A stretch of 63,626 nucleotides of DNA, counting the filler, from an uncultured Methanosarcinales archaeon (lineage in GTDB: Archaea; Nanobdellota; Nanobdellia; Woesearchaeales; CAYNLP01), in assembly GCA_964398115.1 (NCBI GenBank). It is 4 parts of 4 records of this genome, joined end to end, with 100 filler letters (N's around TTAATTAATTAA, not from the genome) between each part and the next. Parts side by side here need not be neighbours in the genome. Positions count along the whole stretch, not along the records: positions 17,508 to 34,642 come from CAYNLP010000018.1; 3 more parts are not named here. One strand, written 5' to 3'. The notes beneath the pieces were generated by a model. The model saw only the letters and a program-made list of their open reading frames with translations, did not search any database and was not told the origin of the DNA. The translations under genes and the position numbers were made by a program. Below are positions 21,053 through 40,529 of the stretch, piece by piece (position 1 is the stretch's first letter; every line of letters starts with the position of its first letter).

Positions 21053-21057
21053 AAAAA

Positions 21058-22026: not shown

Positions 22027-22439
22027 TGGCATGGAAAATATTATTTTCAGTTGTGTTAAGCTTCTTCATAGGTCAAACTATAAAAGCAATCCTTCACTAT
22101 CACCAGTATCATAAGGTTAACTTATGGGTTTTCTTAGAAGATGGTGGTATGCCTTCAGCACATGCAGTTGTAACTTTTTCTTTAACCTCGGCACTTTTTT
22201 ATCAAACAGGAGTTTCCCCATTGTTTGTAACAGCGTTGGTGTTCACACTGGTTATTTTGAATGATACGATGAAAGTTAGTAGAAAACCTGGCATTCAAAG
22301 TGAGCTAATGGCTAAGTTCATCGACGTCCGAGAGATTATTAGGAGGAAACTTACTGAAGGTGTAACGCATACTCCTTTACATGTTTTTTCAGGGATTATA
22401 TTAGGGTTTTTAGTTTCAAGCATGATTTATGCTTTCTAA
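22026..22439 (+). CDS. Divergent PAP2 family protein (DUF212)
   Basis: GGMPSAH and HTPLHVFSG motifs. Confidence 0.85.
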   Translation: MAWKILFSVVLSFFIGQTIKAILHYHQYHKVNLWVFLEDGGMPSAHAVVTFSLTSALFYQTGVSPLFVTALVFTLVILNDTMKVSRKPGIQSELMAKFIDVREIIRRKLTEGVTHTPLHVFSGIILGFLVSSMIYAF

Positions 22440-22500
22440 CAAATTTTTTACTTGTTAAAACAAACGTCTATAAATAAAGAAATCTTTTAACCCTGTTATA

Positions 22501-23814: not shown

Positions 23815-23848
23815 ATTTAAAATATCTTATAGTTTTTTGCTTCGTAGT

Positions 23849-24466
23849 ATGAACGTTAATCCAGAGCATTATAGGGTAGCTATTTTTGGTTCTTCTCGCA
23901 TAGAAAAAGAAGATGGTAGGTATGAACAAGTTTATAATTTAGCGAAGAAAGTAGCAAGTGAAGGTTTTGATGTAGTTACGGGCGGCGGTCCGAGTTTGAT
24001 GGATGCAGCGAGTCGTGGACACCATGCTGGCAGGTCTGAAGATGACGATTTACACAGTATTGGTTTAACTATTAACGTGGCTGATGAACGGGAAGGTTAT
24101 CATTTGGATATCAAGGAAGAGTTTGAAAAGTTTAGTGGTCGGCTTGACAGTTTTATGGAATTGAGTGATGTGGTAGTGGTGGCCCCGGGTGGTATTGGGA
24201 CTATGCTTGAATTGTTTTATACTTGGCAGCTTGTACAGGTGAAACAACTTTGTGAAACTCCTATAATATTGATGGGGGAGAGATGGCAGGGTTTGATTGA
24301 GTGGATAGTGAAGGAAATAGTAGAAGAAGATTTGATGGATGAAAAAGACTTAGAATACGTTTTTGTAGTTGATGATGAAGATCAAGCTTTTGAATTGATT
24401 AGGAAGGTAAAAGAAGATTATGACGCTAATGGGCATGTTTGTAAGAATTGGAATAAGTACGATTAA
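23849..24466 (+). CDS. LOG family nucleotide phosphoribohydrolase
   Basis: AIFGSSR, VTGGGPSLMDAA, PGGIGT.LELF. Confidence 0.9.
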   Translation: MNVNPEHYRVAIFGSSRIEKEDGRYEQVYNLAKKVASEGFDVVTGGGPSLMDAASRGHHAGRSEDDDLHSIGLTINVADEREGYHLDIKEEFEKFSGRLDSFMELSDVVVVAPGGIGTMLELFYTWQLVQVKQLCETPIILMGERWQGLIEWIVKEIVEEDLMDEKDLEYVFVVDDEDQAFELIRKVKEDYDANGHVCKNWNKYD

Positions 24467-24682
24467 CTATTGAAGTTCTTTTAATGATTTCTGGATTTGT
24501 GAAAATACTTTGTCTGAGTTATCTAAATTGGTATAGTTGGTTTGATTAGTTTGTTCTTGTTCAGTTGGTTGAGTTTGTTCTTGATTTTCCTCAACAGGGG
24601 TTTTCTCTTGTGGTGTTTGTTGAGATTGACAGCTAGCTAGTAAAAGCAGTGCTATCACTCCTAATATAATAGCTTTTTTCAT
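24467..24682 (-). CDS. Small lipoprotein
   Basis: LLASC lipobox, Q/T-rich. Confidence 0.6.
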   Translation of the reverse strand: MKKAIILGVIALLLLASCQSQQTPQEKTPVEENQEQTQPTEQEQTNQTNYTNLDNSDKVFSQIQKSLKELQ

Positions 24683-25284
24683 GACATCACCTGTTTATAA
24701 TTGGATTTGAAAGTTTTTACTTTACTCTGTATTTGTTGTGGACTTGCGTCCGACATGGTGTCTTGTTTTATTTCTACAATGGTCGCTATAAGTTTTGAAG
24801 CTTGCTCTGTTGAAATTTCCCCGTTTGCTTGTGCTTTTTCAATTCTTTCTTGCAAGTCGTATAGCAATAGAACTACGTAATTTCGTATAGCTTGTGGGTT
24901 TTCCCTAGCTGTTTGTGATATTGATTGTCCTATTCCAGCGTTTTGTTTAAAGCATTTGTCTTTGTTCTTTCCACGCATTTTATAACAATTTTCGCTGTTC
25001 TGGTATAAAGTTATGCATCCTTGCTTTCTTTCAATGTTTTGACAAGCTTCAGGAGTTTCAGGTTCGGGTTTTTCCTTTTCCATACGACATTTTATCCTTG
25101 CTTGGAGCCCTGTCATTTCATCACAATTTTTTGTACTTGGTTGAGTTTGTTGATTTTCTTGTTCAGTTGATTTAGTCTGTTGATTGTCTTGAGAGGTATC
25201 TTGTCCTCCAGTGCTTGAACCTGCCGCTATAACACCGATTGATATTACAAGAAGCCCTATTACTAATAGTGTCATTAGTCTCAT
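24679..25284 (-). CDS. Secreted Cys-containing hypothetical protein
   Basis: Signal peptide, Q/T linker, six Cys. Confidence 0.65.
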   Translation of the reverse strand: MRLMTLLVIGLLVISIGVIAAGSSTGGQDTSQDNQQTKSTEQENQQTQPSTKNCDEMTGLQARIKCRMEKEKPEPETPEACQNIERKQGCITLYQNSENCYKMRGKNKDKCFKQNAGIGQSISQTARENPQAIRNYVVLLLYDLQERIEKAQANGEISTEQASKLIATIVEIKQDTMSDASPQQIQSKVKTFKSNYKQVMS

Positions 25285-25548
25285 ATTTCTTATAAAAGAA
25301 TTCAATATTTAAAAAATTATTTTTCATTCAATGGTTTTTTCTATAGAAATTAGTTATTAGTTTCTTGTTCTTGCTTTAGTTATAGTAGGCATTACTTGTG
25401 CCTCGACCATGTTAATAATAGTAAGTGTGGTGAATAGGAAAGTTTACAAGAGAGTCTTGGGCTATACTTTCTGAAGCTACGGAAGAATTTGTAGAGAATG
25501 CGTTAAAGAGAAGCCCCGAGAGAAGTATGAGTTGAAATTTTAAAGCTC

Positions 25549-25977
25549 TCATTTCCAATCAGGCCTAAAGATTATCAAATTAGTATAACCATGCTTTTTC
25601 TTGTCAATAATTCCTCGGTCTTCAAGTTTGGAGAGTGTTCTTGAAACTTTCACCCTTGACATTCCTGTAAGTGATACAAGCTTTTTCTGCTCTATCTCTC
25701 CTTTATTTACAAGCACTTTCATTATTTTTCTTTCGGAGACGGGCAGCATCGCCATCAGAGATTCTACTTTTTTATCCTCTATCCTCTCTTCGAACAAGTA
25801 AGTTATAACCCCTCCAAGCACGAGTGCAGTTATGGCTATGGAGTAAAGGAAAGCTGGATAGGTAAAGTTTCCTCCAGACATGTGGGTAGAGTGATAAACC
25901 GAAAACCAGGTTATCAGAGCAGCCAGTATCAAGAAGAGGAAACCTGCAAAGATATTGAGCTTTACCTCTCTCTTCAT
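25549..25977 (-). CDS. Membrane-anchored winged-helix transcriptional regulator
   Basis: Two TM helices followed by E..I..VL..KGEIEQKKLV..TGMSRVKVSRTLSKLEDRGII.K..G.TN.I. Confidence 0.8.
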   Translation of the reverse strand: MKREVKLNIFAGFLFLILAALITWFSVYHSTHMSGGNFTYPAFLYSIAITALVLGGVITYLFEERIEDKKVESLMAMLPVSERKIMKVLVNKGEIEQKKLVSLTGMSRVKVSRTLSKLEDRGIIDKKKHGYTNLIIFRPDWK

Positions 25978-26009
25978 ATTTTTTTGAGATATTATATATG
26001 TTAATAAAT

Positions 26010-26603
26010 CTACTGACAGCCATTGTGCTTCTTCCACATCTCGGGATCGTGGCCTTCAGGTATCTCTTCACATGGGTCGCCAGAGTATCCTCGTACCTGG
26101 TTGTATCTTCGTATCTGGTGGGAGGTAAGGACCTCAGAAGTTTCCAGATGGGCTTTCAGGTGAACATATCTGAGCTTTTCGTAGATTTCTGCGCTTTTGT
26201 TGAGGAGTGCTTCCAGTTTTTCCTCATCCATATTTCCTTGGGAGAAGAAATTATCTATCTCCTTTTCGGCAGTGATCATCCGCTTGCCTGTCTGGACTGC
26301 GTCTTGGTGCATCCTCTTATATATGGAGTTTATCTTCTTTTTCTGCTCCTCGCTTAGGTTCAGTTCTTCAGAAGCGTCGAGGACATGTTTTGGTCCTGGA
26401 ATCCCATTAAGTTCTGCTGGTTTTGCCAGTCCGCGGAGAGCAGTCCCGCTCCCTTGTTGGAGCGCTTCTATATCTTCAGGAGGTATAGCTTTTATCATTC
26501 TCCCTTCCTGTCCCACGTAAGGACTCCTTATCCCCTCATCTGCTTGGCTGCTGCATCCTGCCAACACGACGAGTACCGCGATCAGTATATATTTTGATTT
26601 CAT
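26010..26603 (-). CDS. Spy/CpxP-like (heavy-metal sensor-like) lipoprotein
   Basis: LAGC lipobox, SPYVGQE.R.IKA, GLAKPAELNG.PGP.HVL, L.LSEEQ, HLKAHL..LT.HQ..YN..RGY. Confidence 0.75.
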   Translation of the reverse strand: MKSKYILIAVLVVLAGCSSQADEGIRSPYVGQEGRMIKAIPPEDIEALQQGSGTALRGLAKPAELNGIPGPKHVLDASEELNLSEEQKKKINSIYKRMHQDAVQTGKRMITAEKEIDNFFSQGNMDEEKLEALLNKSAEIYEKLRYVHLKAHLETSEVLTSHQIRRYNQVRGYSGDPCEEIPEGHDPEMWKKHNGCQ

Positions 26604-26655
26604 CGTATTGTTTCATAATATGAAATAGCCTAAGTTATTTTCTGAAATGAAAGAA

Positions 26656-26693
26656 AAGCCCCAGGAGGGATAAGAGCTGAAAGCTTAAATCTC
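26656..26693. repeat. 38-bp direct repeat, copy 1
   Basis: AAGCCCCAGGAGGGATAAGAGCTGAAAGCTTAAATCTC; 35/38 identical to 27493-27530. Confidence 0.9.
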
Positions 26694-26697
26694 AGAT

Positions 26698-27072
26698 TTA
26701 AGCGACTGCAACGTTCATCTCGCTTGGTGAAACAAAATCAGGTCGCTTCTTCTCCACATTAATATTGCTGGACTTCTCAGCATTACGAGCCTTAGAAGTA
26801 ATCAATAGCTTCATCCTGATAGATTCTTTATCTACATCAATAGTCAAATTACCTGAAAGATTATTTCTTAGATGATTTTTAGGAATATTAAATACTTTGG
26901 AAGCACTGAGGATTTCCACCCCTATAACTTCATTATCCTTATTCAAATCAAAAATCAAGTCTCCTATCTGGTGAGAAGAATCGTATTCTTTGTCCAATCG
27001 GCGAGCTGAGAAAGTATCAGTTTCGTAATCGTAATCTACTTCCGCAGGGCCCTTATCCTTTTTTTGTTTCAT
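26698..27072 (-). CDS. DUF2283 domain protein (putative antitoxin)
   Basis: VDYDYETD..., DLIFDLNKDNEVIGVEILSASK. Confidence 0.8.
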   Translation of the reverse strand: MKQKKDKGPAEVDYDYETDTFSARRLDKEYDSSHQIGDLIFDLNKDNEVIGVEILSASKVFNIPKNHLRNNLSGNLTIDVDKESIRMKLLITSKARNAEKSSNINVEKKRPDFVSPSEMNVAVA

Positions 27073-27368
27073 CTTTTCCTCCTCTCCGAGTAAGACGGAA
27101 AAACTGTTATAAGCTTTATTTTATCCTCCGACAGGATCTTGATAACCACGTTAAGGTCTTTTCTATCCGTAAAGTAAAACGTTATTTTATATAAACTTTC
27201 TTCTTCATCCTGTTCTTCAACCCCTACAACCTTATTCTCCTGAATAATCTCCAATACTTCTTCTTTATTTAATTCTCTGTTCTCACACTTATCCTTGAAA
27301 TGCTTAGATTCTTTTATGTTTTCCTCGGAAACATCCTTAACAATGTCTAAAACCTCGGTTATTTCCAT
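27069..27368 (-). CDS. DUF4258/RelE-like protein (putative toxin)
   Basis: SKHFKDKCENREL..EEV, L.VVI...IKLITVFP; overlaps the DUF2283 start (ATGA). Confidence 0.65.
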   Translation of the reverse strand: MEITEVLDIVKDVSEENIKESKHFKDKCENRELNKEEVLEIIQENKVVGVEEQDEEESLYKITFYFTDRKDLNVVIKILSEDKIKLITVFPSYSERRKR

Positions 27369-27492
27369 AGTGATTAGGAAAACAGCTCTCCATTTATATT
27401 TTGTCCCAACAGATGTCCAGTGCAAGAAACTTTAGGAATATAGGTTCAAAGCCCACATTTCCGAAACCCCTGATTTGGTCGTCAAGAAAAAT

Positions 27493-27530
27493 AAGCCCCC
27501 GGAGGGATAAGAGCTGAAAGTCTAAATCTC
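27493..27530. repeat. 38-bp direct repeat, copy 2
   Basis: AAGCCCCCGGAGGGATAAGAGCTGAAAGTCTAAATCTC. Confidence 0.9.
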
Positions 27531-27554
27531 TGTTATTAATCCCCGAGATGTTAG

Positions 27555-28700
27555 CTACATTTGTAGAAGCCCTGCAAGCAAATCCCTCATCACTTCAGAA
27601 CTACCAGCTGCAAGTGTAAAAGCCTGCGAATCCTGGTAGAGATGCGAGAGCCAATGATTTTCATTGAATGCCCCTGCTCCATGGAGGTGGGTGCAGTAGT
27701 CAATGACTTCTCTCGCAGTCTCATAAGATGTTATCTTAACCATTATTATCTCTTTGTCTATTGACTTCTCTTTCACATAATCCCTAACTGTATTATAAGC
27801 TAACTGTCTAGACGCTTCAGCTTGGGACCGCAATTCGGCTATTTTATGCCTTATTGCCTGTTTCTTGCTCAGAGAATCTCCAAAACGCTCTCTATCCCTT
27901 AAGAACTCCAGAGTTCTATCAAGGATGTATAGCGATAGAGAATTCAGAGCGACGGCACCTATTAACCTTTCCCGTTGTATCCCTTTAAGAAGATAATAAA
28001 ACCCATTTCCTGGCTTCCCTAACACCATGTCATCCTGTATAACACAGTCTTTGAAAGTTAATTTGCCCGTATCACCTGATTTAAAGCCCGAAGTAGTTAT
28101 CTTTTTCGAAGTCACACCATCCTTTCCGGTATCAACTATGACAAATCCCAAGGACCAAACATCCTTGTTAGAGCGCATTTTGGTAAGGGTTACAACGTAA
28201 TCGGCAATAGATCCGTTAGTTATGTAGTATTTATCTCCTTCAAGAATCTTCTTGCCTTTCCGTTCCCTGAGCTTAGTCTGAACGGAAGCTAAATCAGACC
28301 CACTTCCTTCTTCTGTAGCTCCAAGAGCAAGATAGTATTCTCCCTTGAGCGCAGGCTCAAGTACATTTTTCTTCTGACTTTCGCTTCCCAAAGTTTCTAT
28401 CAAAGGCGCCACCATGTTAGTGTGAGCGATGATTGAGAGAGCCCAACCCAAAGAATGACATTTAGCCAACTCTTCCGCCAAAACTACTTCGTGCCAGAAA
28501 TCTTTTCCTCTGCCACTATACTTCTTAGGAATGGATAAACCCAGAAAGCCTTTATCCGCCATTAGCTTTAGTAGATGGTCGGGAAATTCACTATTATTTT
28601 CCCACTCTAATGAATTAGGCCTAACCTTTTCAGTAACAAAATTGCTGATATCTTCTCTTAAATTCCTGTGCGATTTATTATTAAGTATTTCAGGCCGCAT
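27555..28700 (-). CDS. Acyl-CoA/acyl-ACP dehydrogenase
   Basis: GFLGLSIP..YSG, LGATEEGSGSD, GDKYYITNG, ERL, RERFG..L...QAI.H.IA, HGAG, AGSSEVM. Confidence 0.93.
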   Translation of the reverse strand: MRPEILNNKSHRNLREDISNFVTEKVRPNSLEWENNSEFPDHLLKLMADKGFLGLSIPKKYSGRGKDFWHEVVLAEELAKCHSLGWALSIIAHTNMVAPLIETLGSESQKKNVLEPALKGEYYLALGATEEGSGSDLASVQTKLRERKGKKILEGDKYYITNGSIADYVVTLTKMRSNKDVWSLGFVIVDTGKDGVTSKKITTSGFKSGDTGKLTFKDCVIQDDMVLGKPGNGFYYLLKGIQRERLIGAVALNSLSLYILDRTLEFLRDRERFGDSLSKKQAIRHKIAELRSQAEASRQLAYNTVRDYVKEKSIDKEIIMVKITSYETAREVIDYCTHLHGAGAFNENHWLSHLYQDSQAFTLAAGSSEVMRDLLAGLLQM

Positions 28701-28701
28701 T

Positions 28702-28956
28702 TCAGAAAGCCTCCAAAGACTCTCCTCTTCCAGAATCTTTGTTCTCCTTTACGTATTGTACTAAGTCACTTACGGTTTCAATATCATCCATTTCTTGTGG
28801 ATTTATAGAAGATTCATACTTGTTTCCCAGGACAGCTATAAGCTCTATGATATCCATAGAATCATTTATTATATCATCTAATTTTGTCTTCATAGAAATC
28901 TCATCTTCTCGCAAATATAATACTTCTCTCATGATTTCGATAATTTCATCTTCCAT
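28702..28956 (-). CDS. Acyl carrier protein 1
   Basis: 84 aa, acidic, DSMDIIEL phosphopantetheine site, TVSDLVQYV. Confidence 0.88.
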   Translation of the reverse strand: MEDEIIEIMREVLYLREDEISMKTKLDDIINDSMDIIELIAVLGNKYESSINPQEMDDIETVSDLVQYVKENKDSGRGESLEAF

Positions 28957-29503
28957 CTATCTCACCGAAAAACTCTTTGAAAGGCTCTCGTTGCAGTATT
29001 CTTCTGTATACTCTCTCATCAATCTCCAACAGCTTGTTCATGGTTTCCTCAACCGCCTTTCGATCATGCTTTTCTGCATGTTCGTCTAATTTCTCTTTAA
29101 CCCAACTCAAATGTCCTTCTTCATCTTCGATCATTTTTTGAAGGGTTTCCTTTACTCTTGGATGAACATCTTTCATCTTGAGATGCTTGCGGAAATGGTT
29201 CAGGGTTCTTTTTTCAAAGACCTGGGTGAGGCAAAGTATCTCGAGTGCATTCTTGGGCATACCGAATTCTTTACCATATTCCGTCTGATAAGTTTTGGTG
29301 ACTTTCTCCGGAGTTTTTCCCATGTCTTTAATGGTTTCTGTCCACATCCAAGCGTGTTCGGCCTCTTCTAAGCAGTGATGGGTCAGAGGTATCCTTATTT
29401 CATCAATATCGGTGACAAAAGCGAGCTTGCCGAAGAGGACGGATCCAGAAAGCTCACATGCTCTGTAGTAACTCAGCACATATAGTTCTTCCTCAGATAT
29501 CAA
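28946..29503 (-). CDS. Ferritin-like diiron protein 2
   Basis: E(RACE)...EEAEH...E(VFEK)...DEEGH diiron ligand pattern. Confidence 0.85.
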   Translation of the reverse strand: MISEEELYVLSYYRACELSGSVLFGKLAFVTDIDEIRIPLTHHCLEEAEHAWMWTETIKDMGKTPEKVTKTYQTEYGKEFGMPKNALEILCLTQVFEKRTLNHFRKHLKMKDVHPRVKETLQKMIEDEEGHLSWVKEKLDEHAEKHDRKAVEETMNKLLEIDERVYRRILQREPFKEFFGEIDGR

Positions 29504-30204
29504 CTTGGATCACCTCGTCTGGTTTTATAGTTGCTGAGACTCTCACCTGTTAACTCCTTTATCTTCTGGTTGAATTCTTGTATTATTTTTATATTATCAT
29601 TTTTGACCCTGGAGACAGCCGGAAGGACATAAGCCCCAACATGCTGGAAGTCCTTTGCATATTCGAGTATTTGATTCTTTATCTCAGGATTTTCCTCTAA
29701 TCTCTTCTTGAGGAGGTCAGCGGCGAATTGAGAGTGGGACACCTCTTGCTTCGATAGTTCTGAGAGGATCTTCTTCAAGACTGGCTCCGGCGCTTCCTCA
29801 GACAAATCTTGGAAAAAGTGTGCGGCAAAGTGTTCCGTCGCCATGAAATTCACCAGCTCTTCTATTTCATCACTATAATCCACATCCTTGTTCTTCTCCC
29901 TTAGTTCCCTTATTTCTTCATCCGATACCGGCTTGTATCCCACGACGTCAAGATATCTCCTGAGTACATAATAATGTGTATATGCTTCGAAAGCCTCTAT
30001 GGTGTATATGGAAGTGGCGTCAATATCATACCAGAACATATCCATCATTTTTCCAACATATACTGCGAAATACGACTCTATTAAACACGCCTCTCTTACA
30101 AGGTCAAGGACTCTTTTATCTTCTAACGCTTTCTCCTTATCAATCTCATCCCACGCAAATTTATTGTCAAAAATCTTTGCTTCTACTTTTTTGAGTTCAT
30201 CCAT
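29500..30204 (-). CDS. Ferritin-like diiron protein 1 (acyl-ACP desaturase-like)
   Basis: W-containing N-terminus, E(LIES)...EAYTH..L..YL...E(ATEH)...EPVL..I....QEVSH. Confidence 0.8.
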   Translation of the reverse strand: MDELKKVEAKIFDNKFAWDEIDKEKALEDKRVLDLVREACLIESYFAVYVGKMMDMFWYDIDATSIYTIEAFEAYTHYYVLRRYLDVVGYKPVSDEEIRELREKNKDVDYSDEIEELVNFMATEHFAAHFFQDLSEEAPEPVLKKILSELSKQEVSHSQFAADLLKKRLEENPEIKNQILEYAKDFQHVGAYVLPAVSRVKNDNIKIIQEFNQKIKELTGESLSNYKTRRGDPS

Positions 30205-30210
30205 GATATA

Positions 30211-31035
30211 TCACTTCTCCGCCACCATGATTGTCTGAAGGCCATGAGGATCTTTATAAGTAGAAGTTTTGGAAAAACCTGCTTCGTCTGCAAGCTTTCG
30301 CAGTTCGCTCTCTCCTCTATAAGAAGTCTTAAGCTCTGCCAAGTGTTTCAACAAATAGTCGGAAAATTTGTGAGATTTCATCCCTGAAGTAACCAAGCAG
30401 CCGCCTTCCTCCAGATTCTTCTTAATTACTCTGTAGAAGTCAACAACACTCTCGTCATCGAGAAACTCTGTAAATCCTGTACTTATTACCATGTCAAAGT
30501 TCTTCATATCTTCGTAGGTTCTCTCAGAAAGAGCATCTCCGTGCCAAAAGTTTAAATCATGCTGCTCTCCTCTTTCCGTCTTTATCTGCCTTAAAATATC
30601 CTTATTTAGGTCTAGAAGATGCCAGGTGACTTTGTCATAATTTGGATGACTTTCTTGCTTGAGAGTGTTAGCGGCCTCAAAGATTTCTCTTGCATAACCG
30701 CTTGGAGCCGAAAGGATATGAAACTTTCCCGAATCGTGTTCTTTGACCTGCTTCAGTATCTCTTCTTTGGCATAGATATACCTGTATCTCATAGACTGTG
30801 CGGATTTCAGGCGAAGCACCAGCCAGTCAATGACGCGACCAATACCAAATTTCCCCCTTGGTTCACCTTTGTAAACATGATCTGCAAAATCATGGCTCCC
30901 CCCATTCTTTATACCTTCTCGGGCCAAGTAACTTGTCATTAATAAATAATAAAGAGGAATCAAGTGCCACCTACCTGTTTTGAACAATTTCTTTGGTATA
31001 GACTTAGATTGTCTTGTTTGATTATGAAATGTCAT
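30211..31035 (-). CDS. Class I SAM-dependent methyltransferase (YnbC/Methyltransf_20-like)
   Basis: DHVY.GEP.G..IGR.ID, ILSAPSGYAR, LLDLN, GDAL, DMVISTGFTEFLDD. Start ATG 31035 overlaps the upstream stop. Confidence 0.8.
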   Translation of the reverse strand: MTFHNQTRQSKSIPKKLFKTGRWHLIPLYYLLMTSYLAREGIKNGGSHDFADHVYKGEPRGKFGIGRVIDWLVLRLKSAQSMRYRYIYAKEEILKQVKEHDSGKFHILSAPSGYAREIFEAANTLKQESHPNYDKVTWHLLDLNKDILRQIKTERGEQHDLNFWHGDALSERTYEDMKNFDMVISTGFTEFLDDESVVDFYRVIKKNLEEGGCLVTSGMKSHKFSDYLLKHLAELKTSYRGESELRKLADEAGFSKTSTYKDPHGLQTIMVAEK

Positions 31036-31837
31036 TTTGAAAACCTCTCTGGCCAATTGTCTTTTTTATTCCCCCAACATAGCAGACTGCTTGCCACGAG
31101 TCTTTCTATACCGAAAGCCACGCACATCGAAGATGCATACTCATCAGGATTCTTGAATATATTAAAATTTTTTGCAAAATGGTCCTTGTGGAGATTTATT
31201 GACATTAAGGGAAGAGACTCATCTCCGATTTTTATAACATATTCCTTTNNNNNNNNNNTTCCTTTTTGAGTTCCTTAATTTTTTGCATTATACGCGCTCC
31301 TCTACTTTCTCCCATAGCAAAAGAATCAGTTGCTGCTTCGAAATCACCCTGCAAATCAAGTTTTTCAAAGATATCTTTAATTAGAACCTTAACTTCTTTC
31401 TCTTTATCCTCTATAAATTCTTCTGTTCCTAAAAAAACGAATTCCAACATATGGAAGTTTGAAAGTCTGAAGGGGAAACTCCATTCTCCACCCTCTCTCC
31501 TACCGCACTCTGAGAATACACAGATACATATATTTTCGATCTGTTCGTTCATGAAATCCAGGTATGTGTGAAGGCAAGATGCTGGCGTCAATGATCTATC
31601 CTCACCAACAGATATTAGTTGATGAGGAAAGTGCTTGCTATAATTGGATTTTTCCAGTATTTCCTCATCTATAATGTCTGGTGCTTCAATGTATTTGTGG
31701 AAATAAGGAGAGAACTTTTCTTTCAGAAAAGATATGTAACCGTTGAAAATCTCTTCGGCCCGTCCGTTAAGCGAAATCTTTCCATTATCTAACTGTTCGA
31801 ATCCTGCTTTTTCCAACTCGGGATATTCTTTATTCAT
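31032..31837 (-). CDS. Amino acid:[carrier protein] ligase (class II aaRS/atypical SerRS catalytic-domain homologue)
   Basis: Y..HFPH, LTPASCLH, R.E..FRL..F.MLEFV.LG, ATDSF. Past the 10-N gap: KEY...MSINLHKDHF...MCVAFGIER...W....WP*. No tRNA-binding domain. Confidence 0.88.
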
Positions 31838-32067
31838 TTGAAAAACTCCTCAATTATTGAGTTAACATCTTGGAAGTTCTTCATCACTATCTCCTCATCG
31901 TTTAACTCTCTCCCAATTTCATTTTCAACATAGCCTATGAGATCAAGGATGTTCATAGAATCCAAGAGTTTGCTCTCAAATAAGGGTGTGTCCTCCGTGA
32001 CTTCCACATCTGGATCTTGTATCACCTTTCCATTGATAAAGTTGATTAGATTTTCTTTTTCAGACAT
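31834..32067 (-). CDS. Carrier protein 2 (aminoacyl/DltC-like)
   Basis: DTPLFES.LLDSMNILDLI..VE..., NFQDVNSI. Confidence 0.9.
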   Translation of the reverse strand: MSEKENLINFINGKVIQDPDVEVTEDTPLFESKLLDSMNILDLIGYVENEIGRELNDEEIVMKNFQDVNSIIEEFFK

Positions 32068-33191
32068 CCTTCTTCCCCCATCCCGTTTCCAGACAGTATC
32101 TTACGACTTTTCCATAATACTCATCTACGGGCGGAATAATGTCTTGGTATTCAGGCAATACTTGAATCAAGTTTGTTTGATCAAATTCCTTAGGATAATT
32201 CAGTTGGTGGGCAAAGTGTTTGAGAGCCGTTAGAGCACCTTTTAGTAGAGGGTTGTTCGCTTGTTCAACCGATTCTATGAACATATCAAAGGTTTCGGGT
32301 GTGGTAATCTTGGGTTTTGGATAGTCTTTTTTCTTCCAGGAGGAATCGCATTTAGCAAGATAATGATAGCTTTTGTCGATAACTTCTTTCAGGTTGTAGG
32401 ATTTTTCCTTCCCTGATACTATGTGGAAAACTTGTTGAGATTCAAATTTTTCTAAGAATAGTTTTGCTATTACTTGGGCCGTTATATCGCTGGGTATCAT
32501 GTCTACAGAGTAGTGAGGTTTTCCGGGAAGCATAGATGCAAGTCCGAGATAAATCATACGGAGAGCAGTATGGGGAGCGGTGAAGTTATTTACTTCACCT
32601 GTTTCGCTATTTCCAAGAACGGTTGAGAGTCNNNNNNNNNNAGAGATTGGAAGTTCTTCCCAGTGTTGTTCAATCAAATTTTCTGCTTCATACTTTGATT
32701 TCTCATATGAATTGACGAAGCCTTCATCATGAGATCTTTCGCTCTCTTTTATCAAACCCGTCCTCTTACCACTGACATAGACCGTGCTCAAGAAACCTAA
32801 TTTTCTCAGATTTTCACAGTCGTGTGCCAAGTTTATTACATTCCTCGTTCCCTTCACATTAGTTTTTCTTATTTCATCAATAGGGAGATCAAACTTGGTA
32901 ATAGCTGCAGCATGAATTATACCATTTGCTCGTTGTTTTATGGTATCGTAGCTTTTTTTCTTGAGACCGAGATTTTCTTCCCTAATATCTCCTGCGAACA
33001 ATGATATTCTGTGGCTGTAGTCTTTTACTTCCAAAATTTCGTTAAGGATTTCTTCTTTCTCTTTACTCTTTCCTGTTTCGTGCAGTAGAAGTTGAAGCTT
33101 GCAGTTTGATTGACTTAGAAGTGAAGNNNNNNNNNNCCAAGTCTTTTCCTATCATTCCTGTACTTCCAGTTATAAAGATGGTTTCTTCCAT
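32060..33191 (-). CDS. Extended SDR, thioester reductase / fatty-acyl reductase-like
   Basis: True start MEETIFITGSTGMIG at 33191 (across a 10-N gap); GDI...LGL, IIHAAA, NV.GT, ST.YVSG, NSYEKSKYEAE. Confidence 0.88.
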
Positions 33192-33192
33192 T

Positions 33193-34133
33193 TTAATGCT
33201 CCAATATCATACATGACCATGTGGCTCCAAAACCAAAAGTGAAGAGCAACAACAAATCCCCTTTCTTCAATACCCCTTCTTTTTTCATATCATGTATATT
33301 GACTATGTGGTCGCATGAAACAGTGTGTCCTTTCTCTTTTACGTTGTTCAGCCAGATTTTTTCTCTGGGTATCTCCGTCATGCTTGAAAGTATTTCCCAG
33401 CTTCTCTTGCTGATATTGTGAGGAACTACCCAGTCTATGTCCTCGATAGTAATTTCTGCTTGCTGCAATGTTTCCTCAATCGCTTTTGAAGCCATAGGGA
33501 AGTATGAAGCCAGGAGTTCTTGCTCTCTCTTTGGAGTGTCCCAATAGTAGGAGTGAGTTATTTGGTTGTAGTGAATTATTTTGTTCTCGGAGCTGTTTTT
33601 TTGTAGTAGGAAGCCACAGGCAGCATCGCTCATGATGTTATACATAATTTCTCTCTTTTCACCTGGTGGAAGCTTATCTCCTGCCAGAATTAAAATATTC
33701 TCTTTGTTTGAGGATTCTAGATAGTGTCGAGCCAGATCAATTGTAGAGAGCAGCCCGCTACATCCTTGTTCTGCAGTTGTCAATGCATTAGCATTTTTCA
33801 ATTCGAGCTCTTGATGCAGGTGTTGTGCCTCATATCTAAAACAGGAAAGCCTTTCCGAATTATTTATGGAGTTTATTCCTGTCCCTGTGTAAAGAAGCAA
33901 CATATCTATATTTTCCTTCCTTTTACCGCTTTTTGAGATAGTCTTCTTACCAATTTCGACTATTAGTTCATGAAAATCTTTCCAGTCTTGCTCGACAAAG
34001 CATTGTTTGAAACCAAAGCCCTCAAGAGTGTCTGGATCAGAGTCTAGAAGGCCTCTCTTTTCTAACTTATTTAGGGATAGTTTGAGTCTTGGAAAGNNNN
34101 NNNNNNCAAACCTATCGATCTTTGGTCTTTCAT
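33193..34133 (-). CDS. FabH/KAS III-like condensing enzyme (Cys-His-His)
   Basis: Own start MKDQRSIGL at 34133 after an AAGGGG SD; QGCSG, MSDAAC..LL, VVPHNIS, GHTVSCD, GD..LLFTFGFGATWS. Confidence 0.88.
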
Positions 34134-34642
34134 TTGAAATCCCCTTTGGACATACTATCGCGCCCACGAAATTATTCTGGCGGAAGGAATAACCGATCCA
34201 TTCTTCGTGTGTTTGGTTGTCCTCTGTTTTAACGTGTATATGGTATCTGTTTTTATATTTTGATTGTATCTGGACTTGTTTAGGAGGTATTTTAAGCCCT
34301 TTTCCTGTCGCTTTGAGAGCTGCTTCTTTCAGTGTCCATAAAAAGGTAATAAGAAGGTCCTCATCCAAACTATCTTTGAATAGATTAATCTCCTCTTCAC
34401 CGGCTACGTATTTCAGTAATTCTTCTCTATGAGGTCTTATCTTCTCTATATCCACACCTATTGCTTCTGAGGACATCCCTGCCAAGCCCAAACCGTGAGA
34501 ATGGGATATAGAACATTGTATGTTATCCTTCCCCTCTATTATGGGCACTCCGTTTTCTTTGTTAGTAACGGTTATTGACCTATAGCCGGTTTTTACTCCT
34601 CCGGACGTCAGATAAGCTTTCTTGAGAGCTATCCTACCAGAA
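34107..34642 (-). CDS. Sfp-type 4'-phosphopantetheinyl transferase (5'-truncated; 3' end in a gap)
   Basis: GRIALKKA...NG.P, SISHS, IGVDIE, WTLKEAALKATGKGL. Confidence 0.9.
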
Positions 34643-34742
34643 NNNNNNNNNNNNNNNNNNNNNNNNNNNNNNNNNNNNNNNNNNNNTTAATTAATTAANN
34701 NNNNNNNNNNNNNNNNNNNNNNNNNNNNNNNNNNNNNNNNNN
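34643..34742. other. Artificial contig spacer
   Basis: N spacer with TTAATTAATTAA. Confidence 0.97.
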
Positions 34743-34752
34743 TATATAAATG

Positions 34753-35649
34753 TTATCTGTTTAACAATACAATAGCGATTACAATCAAAGCTATACCAAT
34801 AAACTTCTTAACCAACTCTCTAAACCTCAAATCCTCCTTCAAAAGACTGGGCTTCCACAAAGAAATCCCTGTAGCCATCAAGAAAATCATAGCGTGCTGC
34901 ATTCCCATAGCCGAACTCACCAATGCAGCGTTCTCCAACTTAATCGCAAAATAATAAAACACGTGACCTATAACAGCGACAACCTGATTCCCAACTAACA
35001 ATTTCTTCAAGAAAGGCTTCAAAGAATTCCAATCCTCAACTACTGATTTTCTGGCCCAACTAAAGAATAAGACAAGTCCAGCTAGGAACAAGCCAATCCT
35101 TGAAAAGTAGAAACCAGTCCAAAAATTAGTATTCTGAAAGACAAACTTCAAAACAATTATCTCAAAAGCACCAACAACACCCACGCCAAGGATAGGCTTC
35201 CAAGACTTGCTCAACTCGAAATCCCCCGCTGCACTCTTCTTAAAAACCAAGAAAAATCCGCCAAACACAAACAAGAAGAAAGCCTTCAACTCACCACCTG
35301 TCAAAGGATCATTCAAAAGAGTCCACGACAAAAACAAAACTATGAAGCTACTGAAAGAACCCAAAGGAAAGACACGAGAAATCTCCTCCACACCCATAGC
35401 AGTGAAGAGAAAATACAACTTAACAAGTTCCAAAACTCCACCAAGAATTGCCCACAAAAAAATAGTAAGATCTGGAAAGGACAAATCAAAAAAAGGAATG
35501 ATAGCCGAAGCAACAACTAGATGAACCAAAGCCGGGAAAAGAACATACAACTTCTCATTATCAACCTTGTCAGCCAATGCGTATCTATCAACAAGAGAAG
35601 TTACACTCCAAATAAACAAACCAACTGTAAGGAAAAATAACCAACCCAT
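34753..35649 (-). CDS. EamA/DMT family transporter
   Basis: Two 5-TM repeats, EEISRVFPL, L.E....K.IG. Confidence 0.8.
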   Translation of the reverse strand: MGWLFFLTVGLFIWSVTSLVDRYALADKVDNEKLYVLFPALVHLVVASAIIPFFDLSFPDLTIFLWAILGGVLELVKLYFLFTAMGVEEISRVFPLGSFSSFIVLFLSWTLLNDPLTGGELKAFFLFVFGGFFLVFKKSAAGDFELSKSWKPILGVGVVGAFEIIVLKFVFQNTNFWTGFYFSRIGLFLAGLVLFFSWARKSVVEDWNSLKPFLKKLLVGNQVVAVIGHVFYYFAIKLENAALVSSAMGMQHAMIFLMATGISLWKPSLLKEDLRFRELVKKFIGIALIVIAIVLLNR

Positions 35650-35675
35650 AAAACCTCACGTGTAACACATATTAT

Positions 35676-37649
35676 TTAATTCTTAATATCCTCAAACTTA
35701 TCGATATAATCATTCACGATATCTACAAAGCTGGAATGACTCCAAGTCAACGGGCTCACGCTTAAAGGCTCACCAGTGTAGGGATGCAACTGTTCAGGCA
35801 GCATATTCGACTCCGTCGCGTTATCCACAACCCAATCAATCACTTCTTTTGCCTCTTCTAAATCATCCAAACTATCTGCTCTCTGGATTAACCACTTACC
35901 ATACCATATCGTCGTGATAAACCAAGGATTACCTGGCACGTCCCTACTGACGCTGTGATAAGAATCCTCTGTATACCGAGCCATACCACCAACTTCAGTA
36001 TCCAACCACAAATCCTCCTTCAAACCCTCCATATTCCTGACAACCCTCTCATCATCTGCTGGTAAGACGTCAAACTCGAAAACAGCAAACGTGCTTGCCT
36101 CCGGAATAGCATCTTCTTCATCATGGTCTTTCAAACATCGAATTCTTCTCAAAAAACGCTCCTCTTCTTCATCCCACAAGTATTCAAGCAAAGACTCCTT
36201 CATAGCATCACCTGTTTTGTAAAACTCTTCCGCCTTTTCTTCATCACCAAATTCTTCAGCAAACTTACCCGCAGCCCACAAACCAGCAATAACCGTTGAA
36301 ACCGTATATGTCATAATCCCCTCTCTTTCCTCCCAAAGATCATAACACTCGATAGGAAGGTTATCATCTCTCGTATGCCTACACATAAACTCTGCGGCAG
36401 GAAGTATCAAACTATCATATAATTCTTCAACAAGATTTTCATCACCAGTCTGCTCGAAATGTTTTCTAAGAGCATAAATGACCAAGGCTGTCTCATCCTC
36501 TTGGATAGGAAGATGAGGCTCTCCGTTCTTAACCCACGGATGCCAAGTACTACCTAAACTCCCATCAGGGTTATACTTATGAAGCATAGACCCACGACCG
36601 GAAATAACTTCGGCACAGAAACGGAAAAAAGGTTTGGTGTATTCATGAAAACCAGCGCGGTCAAAAGCCAACGCGACCAAGGCGCCGTCACGCGGCCAAC
36701 AATAACTGTAAGTATCGCGATTAAACTTCATATTCTCACTATCATTAGCCGCTATAATGGCACCACTTTCATCAATATGGCTTATAACGGTCAAGATACT
36801 CCTCTGATACAGATGCTTTACATCTTCACCTAAGTCTTTGAAATCTCTAGGATTGGAATCCACCACGCCTCTCCAACACTTACGAGTGGTTTCAAAAATG
36901 TTCTCAGGATGCTCCTCCATCATGAAACTGTTCAACTCCTTGATATCCTCTCGACAGTCACCCGCTGCAATCCAATAATAGAAAACCTGTTCTTCACCAG
37001 CACCGAGTTCTGCTTCTACAGCAACAGTACTGTCCACACTTCCTTGCGCGATAGGATTCTGACTTAAATCACCATCTTCTGCATCTTTCCAAGTACCTAC
37101 GGCGCCCTCTTGCTCTGACTGTCCCACCGCGTAATCAGAAATATCTCCTCTCGGTTGACAACTCGTACACGTCTCTTCCCTGATAGCATTAATCATAAAG
37201 TAACGGTTGCGTTTGTAATGAAAAACAGAATTATTCTCAGCATCATAACCCGCCGTATCTCCAATATCCGTACCGTAAAGATGAAAATCTTGATAGAAGA
37301 AAACCTTTATTTTACGCTCCCGATCACTATCATTCTTTAAAGTTACTTTTCTCAAGAAAATATCATGATCACAAGAAACACAATCATTAAACTCTAACTC
37401 AACGCCTAAACTATCATTACAGGCATAAGCCTGACTTACCAAAGTTCCCTCCTCATAACCGATATCTCTATCCCAACCTTCTTCATTAATCCAGGAAAAA
37501 CTCCCCTCAGTAAAAATTCCAATTTTATGAGCATGTCCCTGAACATGATTTTCTTGACCTACGTGAGGATAAAAAATATCTCGAATTTGAAGCCATTTAT
37601 CTATGTTAACTAGAAAACTTTGATTCCCAAGAACTATATCCCTTGGCAC
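35676..37649 (-). CDS. Glycoside hydrolase family 15 (glucoamylase-like)
   Basis: GAIIAA, YSYCWPRDGA, QEDETAL, YDLWEER, LPEQ, PLTWSHS. Confidence 0.93.
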   Translation of the reverse strand: MPRDIVLGNQSFLVNIDKWLQIRDIFYPHVGQENHVQGHAHKIGIFTEGSFSWINEEGWDRDIGYEEGTLVSQAYACNDSLGVELEFNDCVSCDHDIFLRKVTLKNDSDRERKIKVFFYQDFHLYGTDIGDTAGYDAENNSVFHYKRNRYFMINAIREETCTSCQPRGDISDYAVGQSEQEGAVGTWKDAEDGDLSQNPIAQGSVDSTVAVEAELGAGEEQVFYYWIAAGDCREDIKELNSFMMEEHPENIFETTRKCWRGVVDSNPRDFKDLGEDVKHLYQRSILTVISHIDESGAIIAANDSENMKFNRDTYSYCWPRDGALVALAFDRAGFHEYTKPFFRFCAEVISGRGSMLHKYNPDGSLGSTWHPWVKNGEPHLPIQEDETALVIYALRKHFEQTGDENLVEELYDSLILPAAEFMCRHTRDDNLPIECYDLWEEREGIMTYTVSTVIAGLWAAGKFAEEFGDEEKAEEFYKTGDAMKESLLEYLWDEEEERFLRRIRCLKDHDEEDAIPEASTFAVFEFDVLPADDERVVRNMEGLKEDLWLDTEVGGMARYTEDSYHSVSRDVPGNPWFITTIWYGKWLIQRADSLDDLEEAKEVIDWVVDNATESNMLPEQLHPYTGEPLSVSPLTWSHSSFVDIVNDYIDKFEDIKN

Positions 37650-37698
37650 AAATCCACCTAAAACTAGCTAATCTCTTGAAGATATTTAATATTTATCT

Positions 37699-38379
37699 TT
37701 AATATGAAGGAGGCAAAAACTTATCCTTATACCTACGCACAATTATAGGAACGGTAAAAGCCACTGCAAACAATACAACGCTAATAATAACCTCAGTGGA
37801 AAGCAAATCCGACCAAGAGCTTATACCTGAGATGCTGTCAAAAAAGAAAGTGAAAATGAAAGTCCCGGGAATTATACCAAGAAAAGTACCCCAGAAATAT
37901 TCAGAAAACTTCACCCTTGTAAGACCAGCTCCAAAGTTTAAAAGGTTGAACGGAAAGAAAATCAAGCGTAAGTAGAAAATAGTAGCAAAACCATTTTCTT
38001 TCAAAAACTCATCATATTTCTCCACACTCTCCAACTTTTTCTCTAAAAGACTGTCGACAAAATCCTTGCCGAGCCAACGCGCGATGAAGAAAGCTCCAGA
38101 AGCTCCAATAGTAGCACCAATCAAAGTGTATATCGTTCCCCAAAAAGTTCCGAAAGCGACGGCGCCGCCAGCCGTTAACAAAGTACCAGGCAATAACAGG
38201 CAAATACCCAAAGCGTAAAGAAAGATGTAAAAAATAGGAGATAGAATACCGAAATTATCAACCATTGTTCTTATAGACTCCCTGCTCAAATCGGACAAAG
38301 GACCATACCTGGTGAGATAGACAGCTAAAACTATGAAAAGAACCAACCCGATAACTTTCAATACATTTTTCCGCTTCAT
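37699..38379 (-). CDS. TVP38/TMEM64 (VTT/DedA) membrane protein
   Basis: PGTLLT.GG.AFG..WG, GATIGA..AF.IARWLG, LRL..FPFNLLNFGAGLT. Confidence 0.9.
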   Translation of the reverse strand: MKRKNVLKVIGLVLFIVLAVYLTRYGPLSDLSRESIRTMVDNFGILSPIFYIFLYALGICLLLPGTLLTAGGAVAFGTFWGTIYTLIGATIGASGAFFIARWLGKDFVDSLLEKKLESVEKYDEFLKENGFATIFYLRLIFFPFNLLNFGAGLTRVKFSEYFWGTFLGIIPGTFIFTFFFDSISGISSWSDLLSTEVIISVVLFAVAFTVPIIVRRYKDKFLPPSY

Positions 38380-40435: not shown

Positions 40436-40529
40436 CCTCTCACCTCTAATTTAAACTATACATTTATATTTCAATAATTGATTAATAAAAATAACTTTGC
40501 TTTAAAACTTAAATAAATAATTTAACCAG

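Follow-up and report, generated by a model that had tools for sequence, protein, structure and literature searches.

A widely transferred carrier-protein operon in a DPANN-type archaeon, with a possible role in making a reduced aminolipid

Ten minus-strand genes, delimited from open reading frames (ORFs) and from Pfam and NCBIfam matches, fill positions 27555-34641 of the stretch of DNA studied here (the window, 63,626 bases in all), which comes from a DPANN-type archaeon. With moderate confidence, we read these genes as a horizontally mobile, carrier-dependent operon that works without a nonribosomal peptide synthetase (NRPS) and that most likely makes a reduced conjugate of an amino acid and a fatty acyl chain, an aminolipid. 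This reading is carried by the homology of the encoded enzymes to known families, the presence of two kinds of carrier protein, a gene order shared across phyla and genes of lipid type that lie beside the operon in other genomes.

Operon architecture

The first gene encodes an Sfp-type 4'-phosphopantetheinyl transferase (PPTase; 34107-34641). Next come a FabH-like ketosynthase/acyltransferase of the KAS III fold (KS; 33193-34133), a stand-alone thioester reductase of the terminal-reductase type, which is a short-chain dehydrogenase/reductase (SDR; 32060-33190), a 77-residue carrier protein of the aminoacyl kind, like type II peptidyl carrier proteins (CP2; 31834-32067), a short amino acid:[carrier protein] ligase resembling aminoacyl-tRNA synthetases (aaRSs; 31032-31837) and a class I S-adenosylmethionine-dependent methyltransferase of the Methyltransf_20 type (30211-31035). 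The remaining genes encode Fer1, a 234-residue diiron-carboxylate protein distantly related to soluble acyl-carrier-protein (acyl-ACP) desaturases (29500-30204); Fer2, a compact four-helix-bundle diiron protein of 185 residues with an E...ExxH...E...ExxH pattern (28946-29503); ACP1, an 84-residue acyl carrier protein of the fatty-acid-synthase (FAS) type (28702-28956); and an FAD-dependent acyl-CoA/acyl-carrier dehydrogenase (ACAD; 27555-28700), an accessory last gene.

An initial annotation, made from the sequence alone, had described ten co-oriented genes with overlapping or abutting stops and starts, and the ORFs and junction coordinates bear this out. Four-base overlaps join the CP2 stop to the ligase start and the ligase stop to the methyltransferase start; SDR and CP2 overlap by 8 bases, Fer2 and ACP1 by 11, and the Fer1 stop overlaps the called TTG start of Fer2. 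The spacing is a single base between the ACP1 stop and the ACAD start and 6 bases between the methyltransferase and Fer1. The gene identities it proposed also hold, all ten being supported by Pfam, NCBIfam and profile or solved-structure matches. Because homologues of all ten proteins, at 30-66% identity, keep this order in up to 14 other genomes, the operon is more than a chance grouping, and its strict co-linearity and overlapping stops and starts argue that it serves one pathway.

Four 10-N runs interrupt the genes, at 31249-31258 (ligase), 32632-32641 and 33127-33136 (both in the SDR) and 34097-34106 (the PPTase/KS junction, which the 3' end of the PPTase enters). Because of these runs, a naive ORF list fuses the PPTase with the KS, shortens the ligase and the SDR and hides the SDR start.

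Distribution and transfer

A search for the same gene set in other genomes, which the initial annotation had proposed, found it. Fer1 was first compared with a set of 5.8 billion proteins, in which 179 relatives at E ≤ 0.001 emerged among 655 candidates; the 120 matches listed are 49-69% identical to it, apart from the window's own entry, and the few named among them belong to Pacearchaeota, Minisyncoccota and Berkelbacteria. A profile of 26 Fer1 relatives, run against 185,579 species-representative genomes, gave 48 pattern matches and 14 confirmed loci, and mapping with tblastn and hidden Markov models (HMMs) showed the same gene order in 14 of 14. The hosts are Pacearchaeota, Nanoarchaeota, Paceibacterota, Giovannonibacteria, Zambryskibacteria, Dormibacterota, Chloroflexota (Anaerolineaceae), Rhodothermales, Eisenbacteria and a gammaproteobacterium, that is, DPANN archaea (the window, L001 and L014), bacteria of the candidate phyla radiation (CPR) and at least five other bacterial groups.

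Counted over the loci that reach each position, Fer1 (14/14), the methyltransferase (13/13), the ligase (13/13), CP2 (12/12), the SDR (12/12) and the KS (10/10) are always present. The PPTase occurs in 8 of 10 (absent from both Rhodothermales loci, L009 and L010), Fer2 in 12 of 14 and ACP1 in 11 of 14, with a weak match in L010; both Fer2 and ACP1 are absent from L008 and L009. The ACAD, found outside the window in three of the 14 loci (L005, L006 and L013) and at the same position in each, is an accessory to the cassette. The smallest form, in L009, consists of KS, SDR, CP2, ligase, methyltransferase and Fer1.

In a maximum-likelihood tree of concatenated KS, SDR, methyltransferase and Fer1 sequences (11 rows; L002, L011, L012 and L014, which fill less than half of the columns, were left out), the closest relative of the window operon is the Pacearchaeota copy (SH-aLRT 100, 56% identity), part of an archaeal contig of 221 kb. 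In its other hosts, the cassette has the GC content of the host itself, from 0.30 to 0.68. With 14 loci in at least seven bacterial and archaeal groups, the cassette has been widely transferred and is not confined to the archaeon of the window; its spread and host-like GC point to a module complete in itself, PPTase and ACP included, that has moved between hosts repeatedly. In the Zambryskibacteria locus (L006, 11494-14358), genes for a large serine recombinase and a phage terminase large subunit follow directly after the ACAD, and the cassette there borders a prophage-like or mobile region.

Carrier proteins and putative loading enzymes

The PPTase matches PF01648 (ACPS) with E 2.5e-17 (63.3 bits, cutoff 25). 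Complete homologues of 210-230 residues hold the same position in eight loci, those of L004 and L013 also matching PF17837 (4PPT_N). The protein fits the Sfp type, an ACPS domain within a two-lobed protein of about 230 residues. The window copy lacks the N-terminal lobe because the contig ends inside the gene, whose frame is open to base 34641.

The two carriers differ in kind. CP2 matches PF00550 (1.8e-4; 22.1 bits, cutoff 20.8), and its best solved matches are stand-alone aminoacyl carriers, namely 6cxt_A, PltL, PigG, CcbZ and, weakly, the D-alanyl carrier proteins (DltC); among NCBIfam models it weakly matches the ACP of the OlsHI pathway (2.1e-5). It lies directly upstream of the ligase in all 12 loci that reach that position and is presumed to be the partner of the ligase. 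ACP1 matches PF00550 at 1.9e-9 and NCBIfam ACP models at values down to 8.3e-13, below their cutoffs, and its solved matches are nearly all FAS-type ACPs such as AcpP and AcpM. The division of labour that the initial annotation proposed, with one carrier aminoacylated and the other bearing an acyl chain, fits these data.

The ligase belongs with the amino acid:[carrier protein] ligases but stands apart within them. NF005479 matches both halves of the window protein (4.3e-7 and 3.5e-13; 29.2 and 49.2 bits) and the complete ligases of L001 and L005 (102.6 and 89.7 bits), in every case below its cutoff of 357 bits, and the cassette ligase is a divergent subfamily outside this curated equivalog. 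A 14-row profile of the family matches the Bll0957 ligase (3mey) with E 3.1e-35 over positions 30-267 of 268, followed by methanogen-type SerRS; judged by this alignment, the cassette ligase is a true relative of the solved enzyme. A Cys (in PAxC), a Glu (in CxRxE) and a Cys before AFGxERL are at least 90% conserved and align with the same residues of Bll0957; we take these to be the zinc ligands of the methanogen-type SerRS lineage. Full-length cassette ligases have 250-308 residues, with the class II core PF00587 as their sole Pfam domain, and at this length they have no tRNA-binding domain.

The Bradyrhizobium Bll0957/Bsr0959-type ligase and carrier (3mey, 4h2u and other solved structures) are the closest comparison: both systems have a class II aaRS core without a tRNA-binding domain, the Cys/Glu/Cys zinc site and a small adjoining carrier gene. 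The cassette ligases are shorter (250-308 residues, whereas Bll0957 has 346), and a segment of some 23 residues in Bll0957 is missing from them; unlike the known ligases, they sit in a defined context of 10-13 genes. As tabulated in a 2022 review (PMC9437257), characterized ligases of this class load Gly, Ala or Ser, and the same review gives their biological role as unknown; the 4H2U enzyme is named a glycine:[carrier protein] ligase in PMC11685415. The SbzL/SbzG pair of altemicidin biosynthesis was set aside as a precedent, as PMC11685415 cites the Bradyrhizobium carrier only as a structural neighbour.

The window ligase is split by its N-run into 31259-31837 and 31035-31247, and reading resumes in another frame past the run. 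The same 7 bases precede and follow the run, and in the family alignment one half continues where the other stops; the run therefore hides little or no sequence and appears to be an overlap that was left unmerged. Of the 118 candidates from a word-indexed search for homologues of the N-terminal part, none reached E ≤ 1e-5. When 1.84 billion representatives were searched exhaustively with the ligase profile as an HMM, 1931 relatives appeared at E ≤ 0.001, 580 of them at E ≤ 1e-30; about the top 50 score above 220 bits and form a high-scoring group of their own, which is the cassette type. Many distant relatives (P0297-P0390) have 370-417 residues, about 100 of which form an N-terminal extension without a Pfam match, and one, P0374 (743 residues), is fused to a GNAT acetyltransferase domain, which hints at other uses of ligases of this type.

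Putative joining and release enzymes

The KS matches PF08541 (3e-21) and PF08545 (3.9e-6), both above cutoff, but falls below every NCBIfam cutoff (the DarB model gives 26.7 bits against 550). Its start, ATG 34133, lies within the 3' end of the PPTase gene, and the N-run at 34097-34106 hides about six of its residues. The family profile matches FabH (2ebd) along its length with E 2.4e-24, and the nucleophilic Cys is aligned and invariant (11/11). It shares both ACP_syn_III domains and the position of the nucleophilic Cys with FabH and its KAS III relatives CerJ, ChlB3, PqsD and DarB, but where FabH has Cys-His-Asn the cassette enzyme has Cys-His-His: the Asn position is His in all 11 sequences, and the first His is itself not invariant, being Ser in two of them (L004 and L007). 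An extra Asp-His pair follows the second His and is invariant in the family. We take the Cys-His-Asn residues of FabH to have their usual catalytic roles and the triad to be needed for decarboxylation of malonyl-ACP. On that footing a triad so altered that even its first His can be lost disfavours ordinary malonyl decarboxylation and would be hard to reconcile with the canonical reaction; it appears to favour acyl transfer to a free amine or a non-decarboxylative condensation.

The SDR matches PF07993 (NAD_binding_4) at 1.4e-39 (136 bits, cutoff 20.1) and the thioester reductase model TIGR01746 at 1.1e-28 (100.6 bits against a cutoff of 213, for a window protein with two N-runs). It starts at 33190, with the Rossmann motif TGxxGxxG encoded within 33137-33190, before the N-run, and its YxxxK motif is invariant in an alignment of 11 sequences. 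The best solved match of a complete homologue is the reductase domain of MxaA (4u7w, E 5e-18), with a polyketide synthase (PKS) reductase domain and a fatty acyl-CoA reductase also matched. The cassette enzyme thus shares its NAD_binding_4 fold, TGxxGxxG and YxxxK with MxaA of myxalamid synthase and with the reductase domains of NRPSs, PKSs and carboxylic acid reductases, but it stands free, whereas the known ones are the last domain of a megasynthase.

Putative tailoring enzymes

The methyltransferase matches PF12147 at 2.2e-12 (47.2 bits, cutoff 21), and 52 columns are invariant among its ten aligned sequences. Its start codon, ATG 31035, lies across the ligase stop, and a TTG farther upstream (31056) is open as well. 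The solved matches are generic only, weak ones to phosphoethanolamine N-methyltransferases included, and give no specific solved relative.

In Pfam and NCBIfam, Fer1 and Fer2 have weak ferritin-like matches. The only significant sequence link of Fer1 is that of its profile to DesA2, a mycobacterial acyl-ACP desaturase homologue (1za0, E 5.6e-10). Its candidate metal ligands E43, E73, H77, E124, E154 and H157 are invariant in 26 sequences, the first metal motif being E-x3-H rather than E-x2-H and the second ExxH. Its AlphaFold2 (AF2) model has a pLDDT of 95.4, and weak fold matches (E ≥ 2.6e-3) include R2lox, DesA2, plant acyl-ACP desaturases, proteins like aldehyde-deformylating oxygenase (ADO) and VlmB. 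Pfam scans of the window and the loci gave no FA_desaturase_2 (PF03405) match for Fer1 or Fer2, and Fer1 is a relative, not a member, of the soluble acyl-ACP desaturase family. Language-model look-alikes of Fer1 include FA_desaturase_2, aldehyde decarbonylase and PaaA/PaaC clusters.

In 13 aligned Fer2 sequences, five residues never vary (E17, E47, H50, E97 and H131), and E128 is kept in at least 90%. Its sequence matches are to generic ferritins and bacterioferritins only; its four-helix AF2 model (pLDDT 92.5) is closest to the ADO-like 5ux1 (E 2.3e-3) and the ferritin-like 3ez0 (TM 0.77). The language-model look-alikes of Fer1 and Fer2 taken together are unnamed ferritin-like clusters along with desaturase, aldehyde decarbonylase, PaaA/PaaC and AurF clusters. 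Both proteins share the ferritin-like diiron four-helix core of soluble acyl-ACP desaturases and DesA2, R2-like ligand-binding oxidases and cyanobacterial ADO, fold neighbours that bind or act on long acyl chains, but they are much smaller than the plant desaturases (234 and 185 residues against about 320-350).

The ACAD matches PF02771, PF02770 and PF00441, all three above cutoff. Among solved structures it is most like generic and long-chain acyl-CoA dehydrogenases (E 1.7e-50 to 2e-47); a prolyl-ACP dehydrogenase (2e-26) and MbtN rank lower.

Neighbouring genes

The initial annotation had noted that the cluster is cut by the contig end, which is so, and had suspected that loading enzymes might be missing beyond it, which the complete loci do not support: they show none. 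Past the point where the window contig ends, these loci carry the rest of the PPTase and then three recurrent genes upstream, mostly on the opposite strand. One encodes a poorly conserved small membrane protein (six loci, possibly seven), another an SRPBCC/Polyketide_cyc2 protein (eight loci) and the third a PlsC-type acyltransferase (five copies in four loci, with the HX4D motif in 5/5), for which the best NCBIfam model, matched at E 1.2e-22 but far short of its cutoff, is the Aas-type acyl-ACP:lysophospholipid acyltransferase domain. An MMPL transporter gene directly precedes the KS in L010, and Lnb_N proteins occur in L002 and L006.

Other genes follow the operon in single loci. In the Giovannonibacteria locus (L005, 12780-16807), a second PlsC-type acyltransferase is found with a 639-residue lipase/alpha-beta hydrolase and a second Methyltransf_20 paralogue, 25% identical to the methyltransferase of the operon. 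In the Anaerolineaceae locus (L008, 11144-16327), Fer1 is followed by a cytidylyltransferase, a 664-residue protein, a sulfatase-like protein and a 2-hydroxyacid dehydrogenase; this tail may be a variant of the pathway or an unrelated operon.

Proposed pathway

The pairing of CP2 with the ligase, the position of ACP1 near a desaturase-like enzyme and sometimes an ACAD, the KS and SDR beside CP2 and the lipid-type neighbours fit a single join-and-release pathway. In the scheme that follows, the choice of amino acid and acyl donor, the kind of bond that the KS forms, the timing of the tailoring steps and the nature of the product are inferred. The PPTase would turn both carriers into their holo forms. 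The short ligase would adenylate a small amino acid and thioesterify CP2 with it, and a fatty acyl chain would be held on ACP1 or, in hosts without ACP1, on a housekeeping acyl-ACP or CoA; there Fer1, which is desaturase-like, Fer2 and, in loci that have one, the ACAD may modify it. The FabH-like enzyme would take the acyl group onto its Cys and then join it to the CP2-bound amino acid. If the joining is an N-acylation, which is chemically easier, an N-acyl aminoacyl thioester would form and be reduced to an N-acyl amino alcohol or aldehyde; if it is a non-decarboxylative C-C condensation at the alpha carbon, a 2-amino-3-ketoacyl thioester would form and yield a keto-sphingoid-like base after reduction. 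The methyltransferase would tailor the intermediate, and the stand-alone reductase would free the product from CP2 as an aldehyde or alcohol. In the complete loci, the PlsC-type acyltransferase could add a further acyl chain by O-acylation, and the SRPBCC or MMPL proteins could handle the lipid.

The minimal set of L009 keeps exactly the join-and-release core. That it does so without ACP1 suggests that hosts able to make fatty acids themselves can use a housekeeping acyl-ACP instead.

Several points weigh against this scheme. As a group, DPANN archaea and CPR bacteria are not known to synthesize fatty acids, a point made in part in PMC12455944. The cassette loci hold no conserved acyl-ACP synthetase, acyl-CoA ligase or malonyl transferase, which leaves the acylation of ACP1 unexplained, and this matters most in DPANN and CPR hosts. 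All NCBIfam equivalog matches of the operon proteins are far below the curated cutoffs, and for this reason none of these proteins can be equated with a known enzyme. ADO-like proteins, too, are among the look-alikes of both diiron proteins, and all fold matches of the two are weak (E ≥ 2.3e-3, TM ≤ 0.77). The acyltransferase, SRPBCC and membrane-protein genes are not visible in the window, because its contig ends before them. Finally, the five best solved matches of CP2 are carriers of the prolyl/pyrrolyl type, and because of these matches and the ACAD a pyrrole-type small molecule fits as well as a lipid.

Comparison with known pathways

All the components fall into known superfamilies, and in its logic of loading, joining, tailoring and reductive release the scheme follows type II thiotemplate pathways. 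The gene set itself is another matter: no described pathway that has it was found in the open-access literature searched, in agreement with the view of the initial annotation that it was not a recognized one.

The type II NRPS-like prolyl modules (PltF/PltL/PltE, PigI/PigG/PigA and Bmp1/Bmp3, for which we assume the usual pathway roles) resemble the cassette in having an aminoacyl carrier, its loader and an ACAD in one operon. The cassette, in contrast, loads through an aaRS paralogue, not an adenylation enzyme of the ANL family; its ACAD is optional and stands beside a FAS-type ACP, and it has neither a halogenase nor a PKS.

In proposed outcome, an amino acid combined with a fatty acyl group, the cassette resembles bacterial sphingolipid synthesis, which relies on a serine palmitoyltransferase dependent on pyridoxal phosphate (PLP), and the OlsBA, OlsF and OlsH pathways to ornithine lipids, with which it also shares a dedicated ACP and a PlsC-type second acyltransferase (for these bacterial pathways, see PMC12493201 and PMC12971839). 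It differs from them in having no PLP enzyme, no N-acyltransferase of the OlsB, OlsF or GH3 type and no ceramide synthase, and in that it would activate the amino acid as a thioester on a carrier and release the product by reduction. Synthesis of ornithine lipids by the OlsH/OlsI route, whose ACP model CP2 weakly matches, was rejected: that route uses a GH3-like enzyme, as set out in PMC12493201, and no GH3-like gene is present.

Other assignments were considered and given up. Aryl polyene clusters pair a KS with ketoreductase and dehydratase genes, and dialkylresorcinol clusters have DarA and DarB; the cassette holds no ketoreductase, dehydratase or DarA-like gene. The methoxymalonyl- and aminomalonyl-ACP extender pathways, which combine an ACP, an ACAD and a methyltransferase, are not favoured, as the ACAD is optional here and neither an FkbH-like enzyme nor a 3-hydroxyacyl dehydrogenase is present.

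Alternative explanations

The cassette might instead build a non-lipid small molecule on the carrier-bound amino acid. For example, in the manner of type II NRPS-like pyrrole pathways, proline on CP2 could be oxidized by the ACAD to a pyrrolyl thioester, which the KS would extend or transfer before it is oxygenated, methylated and released in aldehyde form. The best solved matches of CP2 (6cxt_A, PltL, PigG and CcbZ) speak for this, the more so as the 6cxt carrier is paired with an ACAD-family chain, 6cxt_B, that the window ACAD matches at E 3.1e-30; the NCBIfam models of the prolyl-carrier dehydrogenases PigA and RedW match the ACAD at 1.5e-40 and 4.5e-40, and N-oxygenases of the AurF and VlmB types are among the weak relatives of Fer1 and Fer2. 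However, the ACAD is present in only 3 of 14 loci while the rest of the cassette is kept, it is nearer to ordinary and long-chain acyl-CoA dehydrogenases than to the prolyl-ACP dehydrogenase (1.7e-50 to 2e-47 against 2e-26), and it adjoins the FAS-type ACP1, not CP2. The neighbouring genes are of lipid type, and the amino acids loaded by characterized ligases in the review table (PMC9437257) are Gly, Ala or Ser. We consider a product of this kind unlikely.

Two further schemes seem to us quite improbable. One is a hydrocarbon- or amine-forming route like that of cyanobacterial acyl-ACP reductase and ADO, in which the SDR would make an aldehyde from an acyl chain on a carrier, perhaps one extended by an aminoacyl unit, and Fer1, Fer2 or both would deformylate it. 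An aldehyde-forming reductase does lie in the same operon; 5ux1, the top fold match of Fer2 (E 2.3e-3, TM 0.69), is annotated with ADO activity, and cyanobacterial ADO entries are matched as well; Fer1 matches the ADO-like 6d9f, and its Atlas scores against aldehyde decarbonylase clusters are 0.91-0.92. Ferritin-like folds are alike at this level, however. Pfam scans of the window and the loci found no Ald_deCOase (PF11266) match for either protein, the desaturase homologue remains the one significant sequence link of Fer1, and the ligase, CP2 and the methyltransferase would be left without explanation.

The other, to which we give as little credence, splits the operon into two loosely coupled functions: ACP1, the diiron proteins, the ACAD and the PlsC-type enzyme would remodel scavenged fatty acids or re-esterify them into lysolipids, and the ligase and CP2 would deliver an amino acid, in Dlt-like fashion and without tRNA, to a membrane or surface acceptor. 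In its favour, the acyltransferase is most like the Aas-type acyl-ACP:lysophospholipid acyltransferase domain, a lipase gene lies near the L005 cassette, CP2 has its weak match to DltC, and CPR bacteria are reported in PMC12455944 to recycle host lipids. Yet it gives no role to the KS or the SDR, both invariably beside CP2 in the minimal cassette, from which ACP1 and Fer2 can be lost, and the strict co-linearity with overlapping stops and starts also tells against it. The single join-and-release pathway that ends in an aminolipid remains our preferred reading.

It is highly improbable that a bacterial fragment, for example from CPR, was wrongly joined to an archaeal contig in assembly or binning: the cluster holds all four 10-N runs of its contig, has a slightly deviant tetranucleotide composition and has close relatives in CPR bacteria, but no N-run separates it from the archaeal-type genes, its GC is that of the rest of the window, its nearest relative is the copy on the 221-kb Pacearchaeota contig, a Nanoarchaeota contig also carries Fer1-Fer2-ACP1, and in other hosts the cassette takes the GC of its host.

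Genomic context

The window consists of four contigs (1-17407, 17508-34642, 34743-50811 and 50912-63626) joined at 17408-17507, 34643-34742 and 50812-50911 by N44, a 12-base spacer with stops in all frames and N44, and features on separate contigs are linked only through binning. The operon sits on the second contig (17,135 bases) and reaches its end. As the initial annotation stated, the same contig carries moxR, DUF58, VWA/BatA and mqo genes, and it also has an archaeal-type DUF7343/TrmB regulator; the sequence is continuous between 26 and 28 kb. The host is a DPANN-type archaeon, in keeping with the small-genome type named in the initial annotation: among the 120 matches listed for the MoxR of this contig, all 11 that are named belong to Nanoarchaeota, Woesearchaeota or an 'archaeon' (66-77% identity), and the operon groups with the Pacearchaeota copy. 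GC shows no departure (0.397 in the cluster, 0.384-0.406 elsewhere in the window); in the tetranucleotide check that the initial annotation had suggested, the correlation of the cluster with other parts is slightly lower (r 0.87-0.90) than that of those parts among themselves (0.92-0.95). A chimeric or contaminant origin of the cluster is unlikely.

A terminator-like hairpin with a T-run (27494-27515, minus strand), 40 bases past the ACAD stop, is a possible end of the operon. The evidence is weak, as the region has 4 such sites against 4.9 +/- 2.1 in shuffled sequence, and a scan of the region for promoters and terminators found sites no commoner than in shuffles. Directly downstream on the same strand come two overlapping genes, for a DUF4258 protein (27069-27425) and a DUF2283 protein (26698-27072), which resemble the small toxin-antitoxin-like pairs that often accompany mobile regions.

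No tRNA or rRNA was found on the cluster contig. On another contig, Rfam gives a tRNA match of 119 bases (14776-14894, minus strand; 49.5 bits) where ARAGORN gives none, and its length fits an intron-containing archaeal tRNA. The bin encodes an Fe/Mn superoxide dismutase (3655-4362), a malate:quinone-oxidoreductase-like flavoprotein (22501-23814), a type 2 NADH dehydrogenase (NDH-2; 41246-42481) and a dihydroorotate dehydrogenase (51696-52742), an oxygen- and quinone-linked set that is unusual for a DPANN-type genome and is consistent with O2-dependent diiron enzymes in the operon. Homologues of the lipase maturation factor LMF1 (53726-55225) and of a biopterin-dependent aromatic amino acid hydroxylase (61556-62257) are not expected in a small archaeal genome. 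A 737-residue protein with a dockerin type I domain (2-2215) is open at the start of the first contig.

Implications

A more specific form of our reading is that the cassette provides a PLP- and tRNA-independent route to a membrane lipid, either sphingoid-like or an N-acyl amino alcohol, that has been exchanged among the ultra-small symbionts of the DPANN archaea and CPR bacteria and several free-living phyla. We hold this form to be possible but doubtful. Archaea, as far as we know, normally lack ACP-dependent systems, and if this form is true, it would place an ACP/PPTase thiotemplate system at work in an archaeon and give the amino acid:[carrier protein] ligases a first biological role. Organisms without fatty-acid synthesis could then build their own lipid from acyl chains that they scavenge. 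The ligases have been characterized in structure and kinetics, and the finding of a short subfamily of them in a conserved operon with a condensing enzyme, a reductase, tailoring enzymes and lipid-type neighbours makes the question of what they do one that can be tested as a pathway. A working thiotemplate lipid pathway in a DPANN archaeon, or a self-made lipid in organisms believed to draw their lipids from hosts, would be notable.

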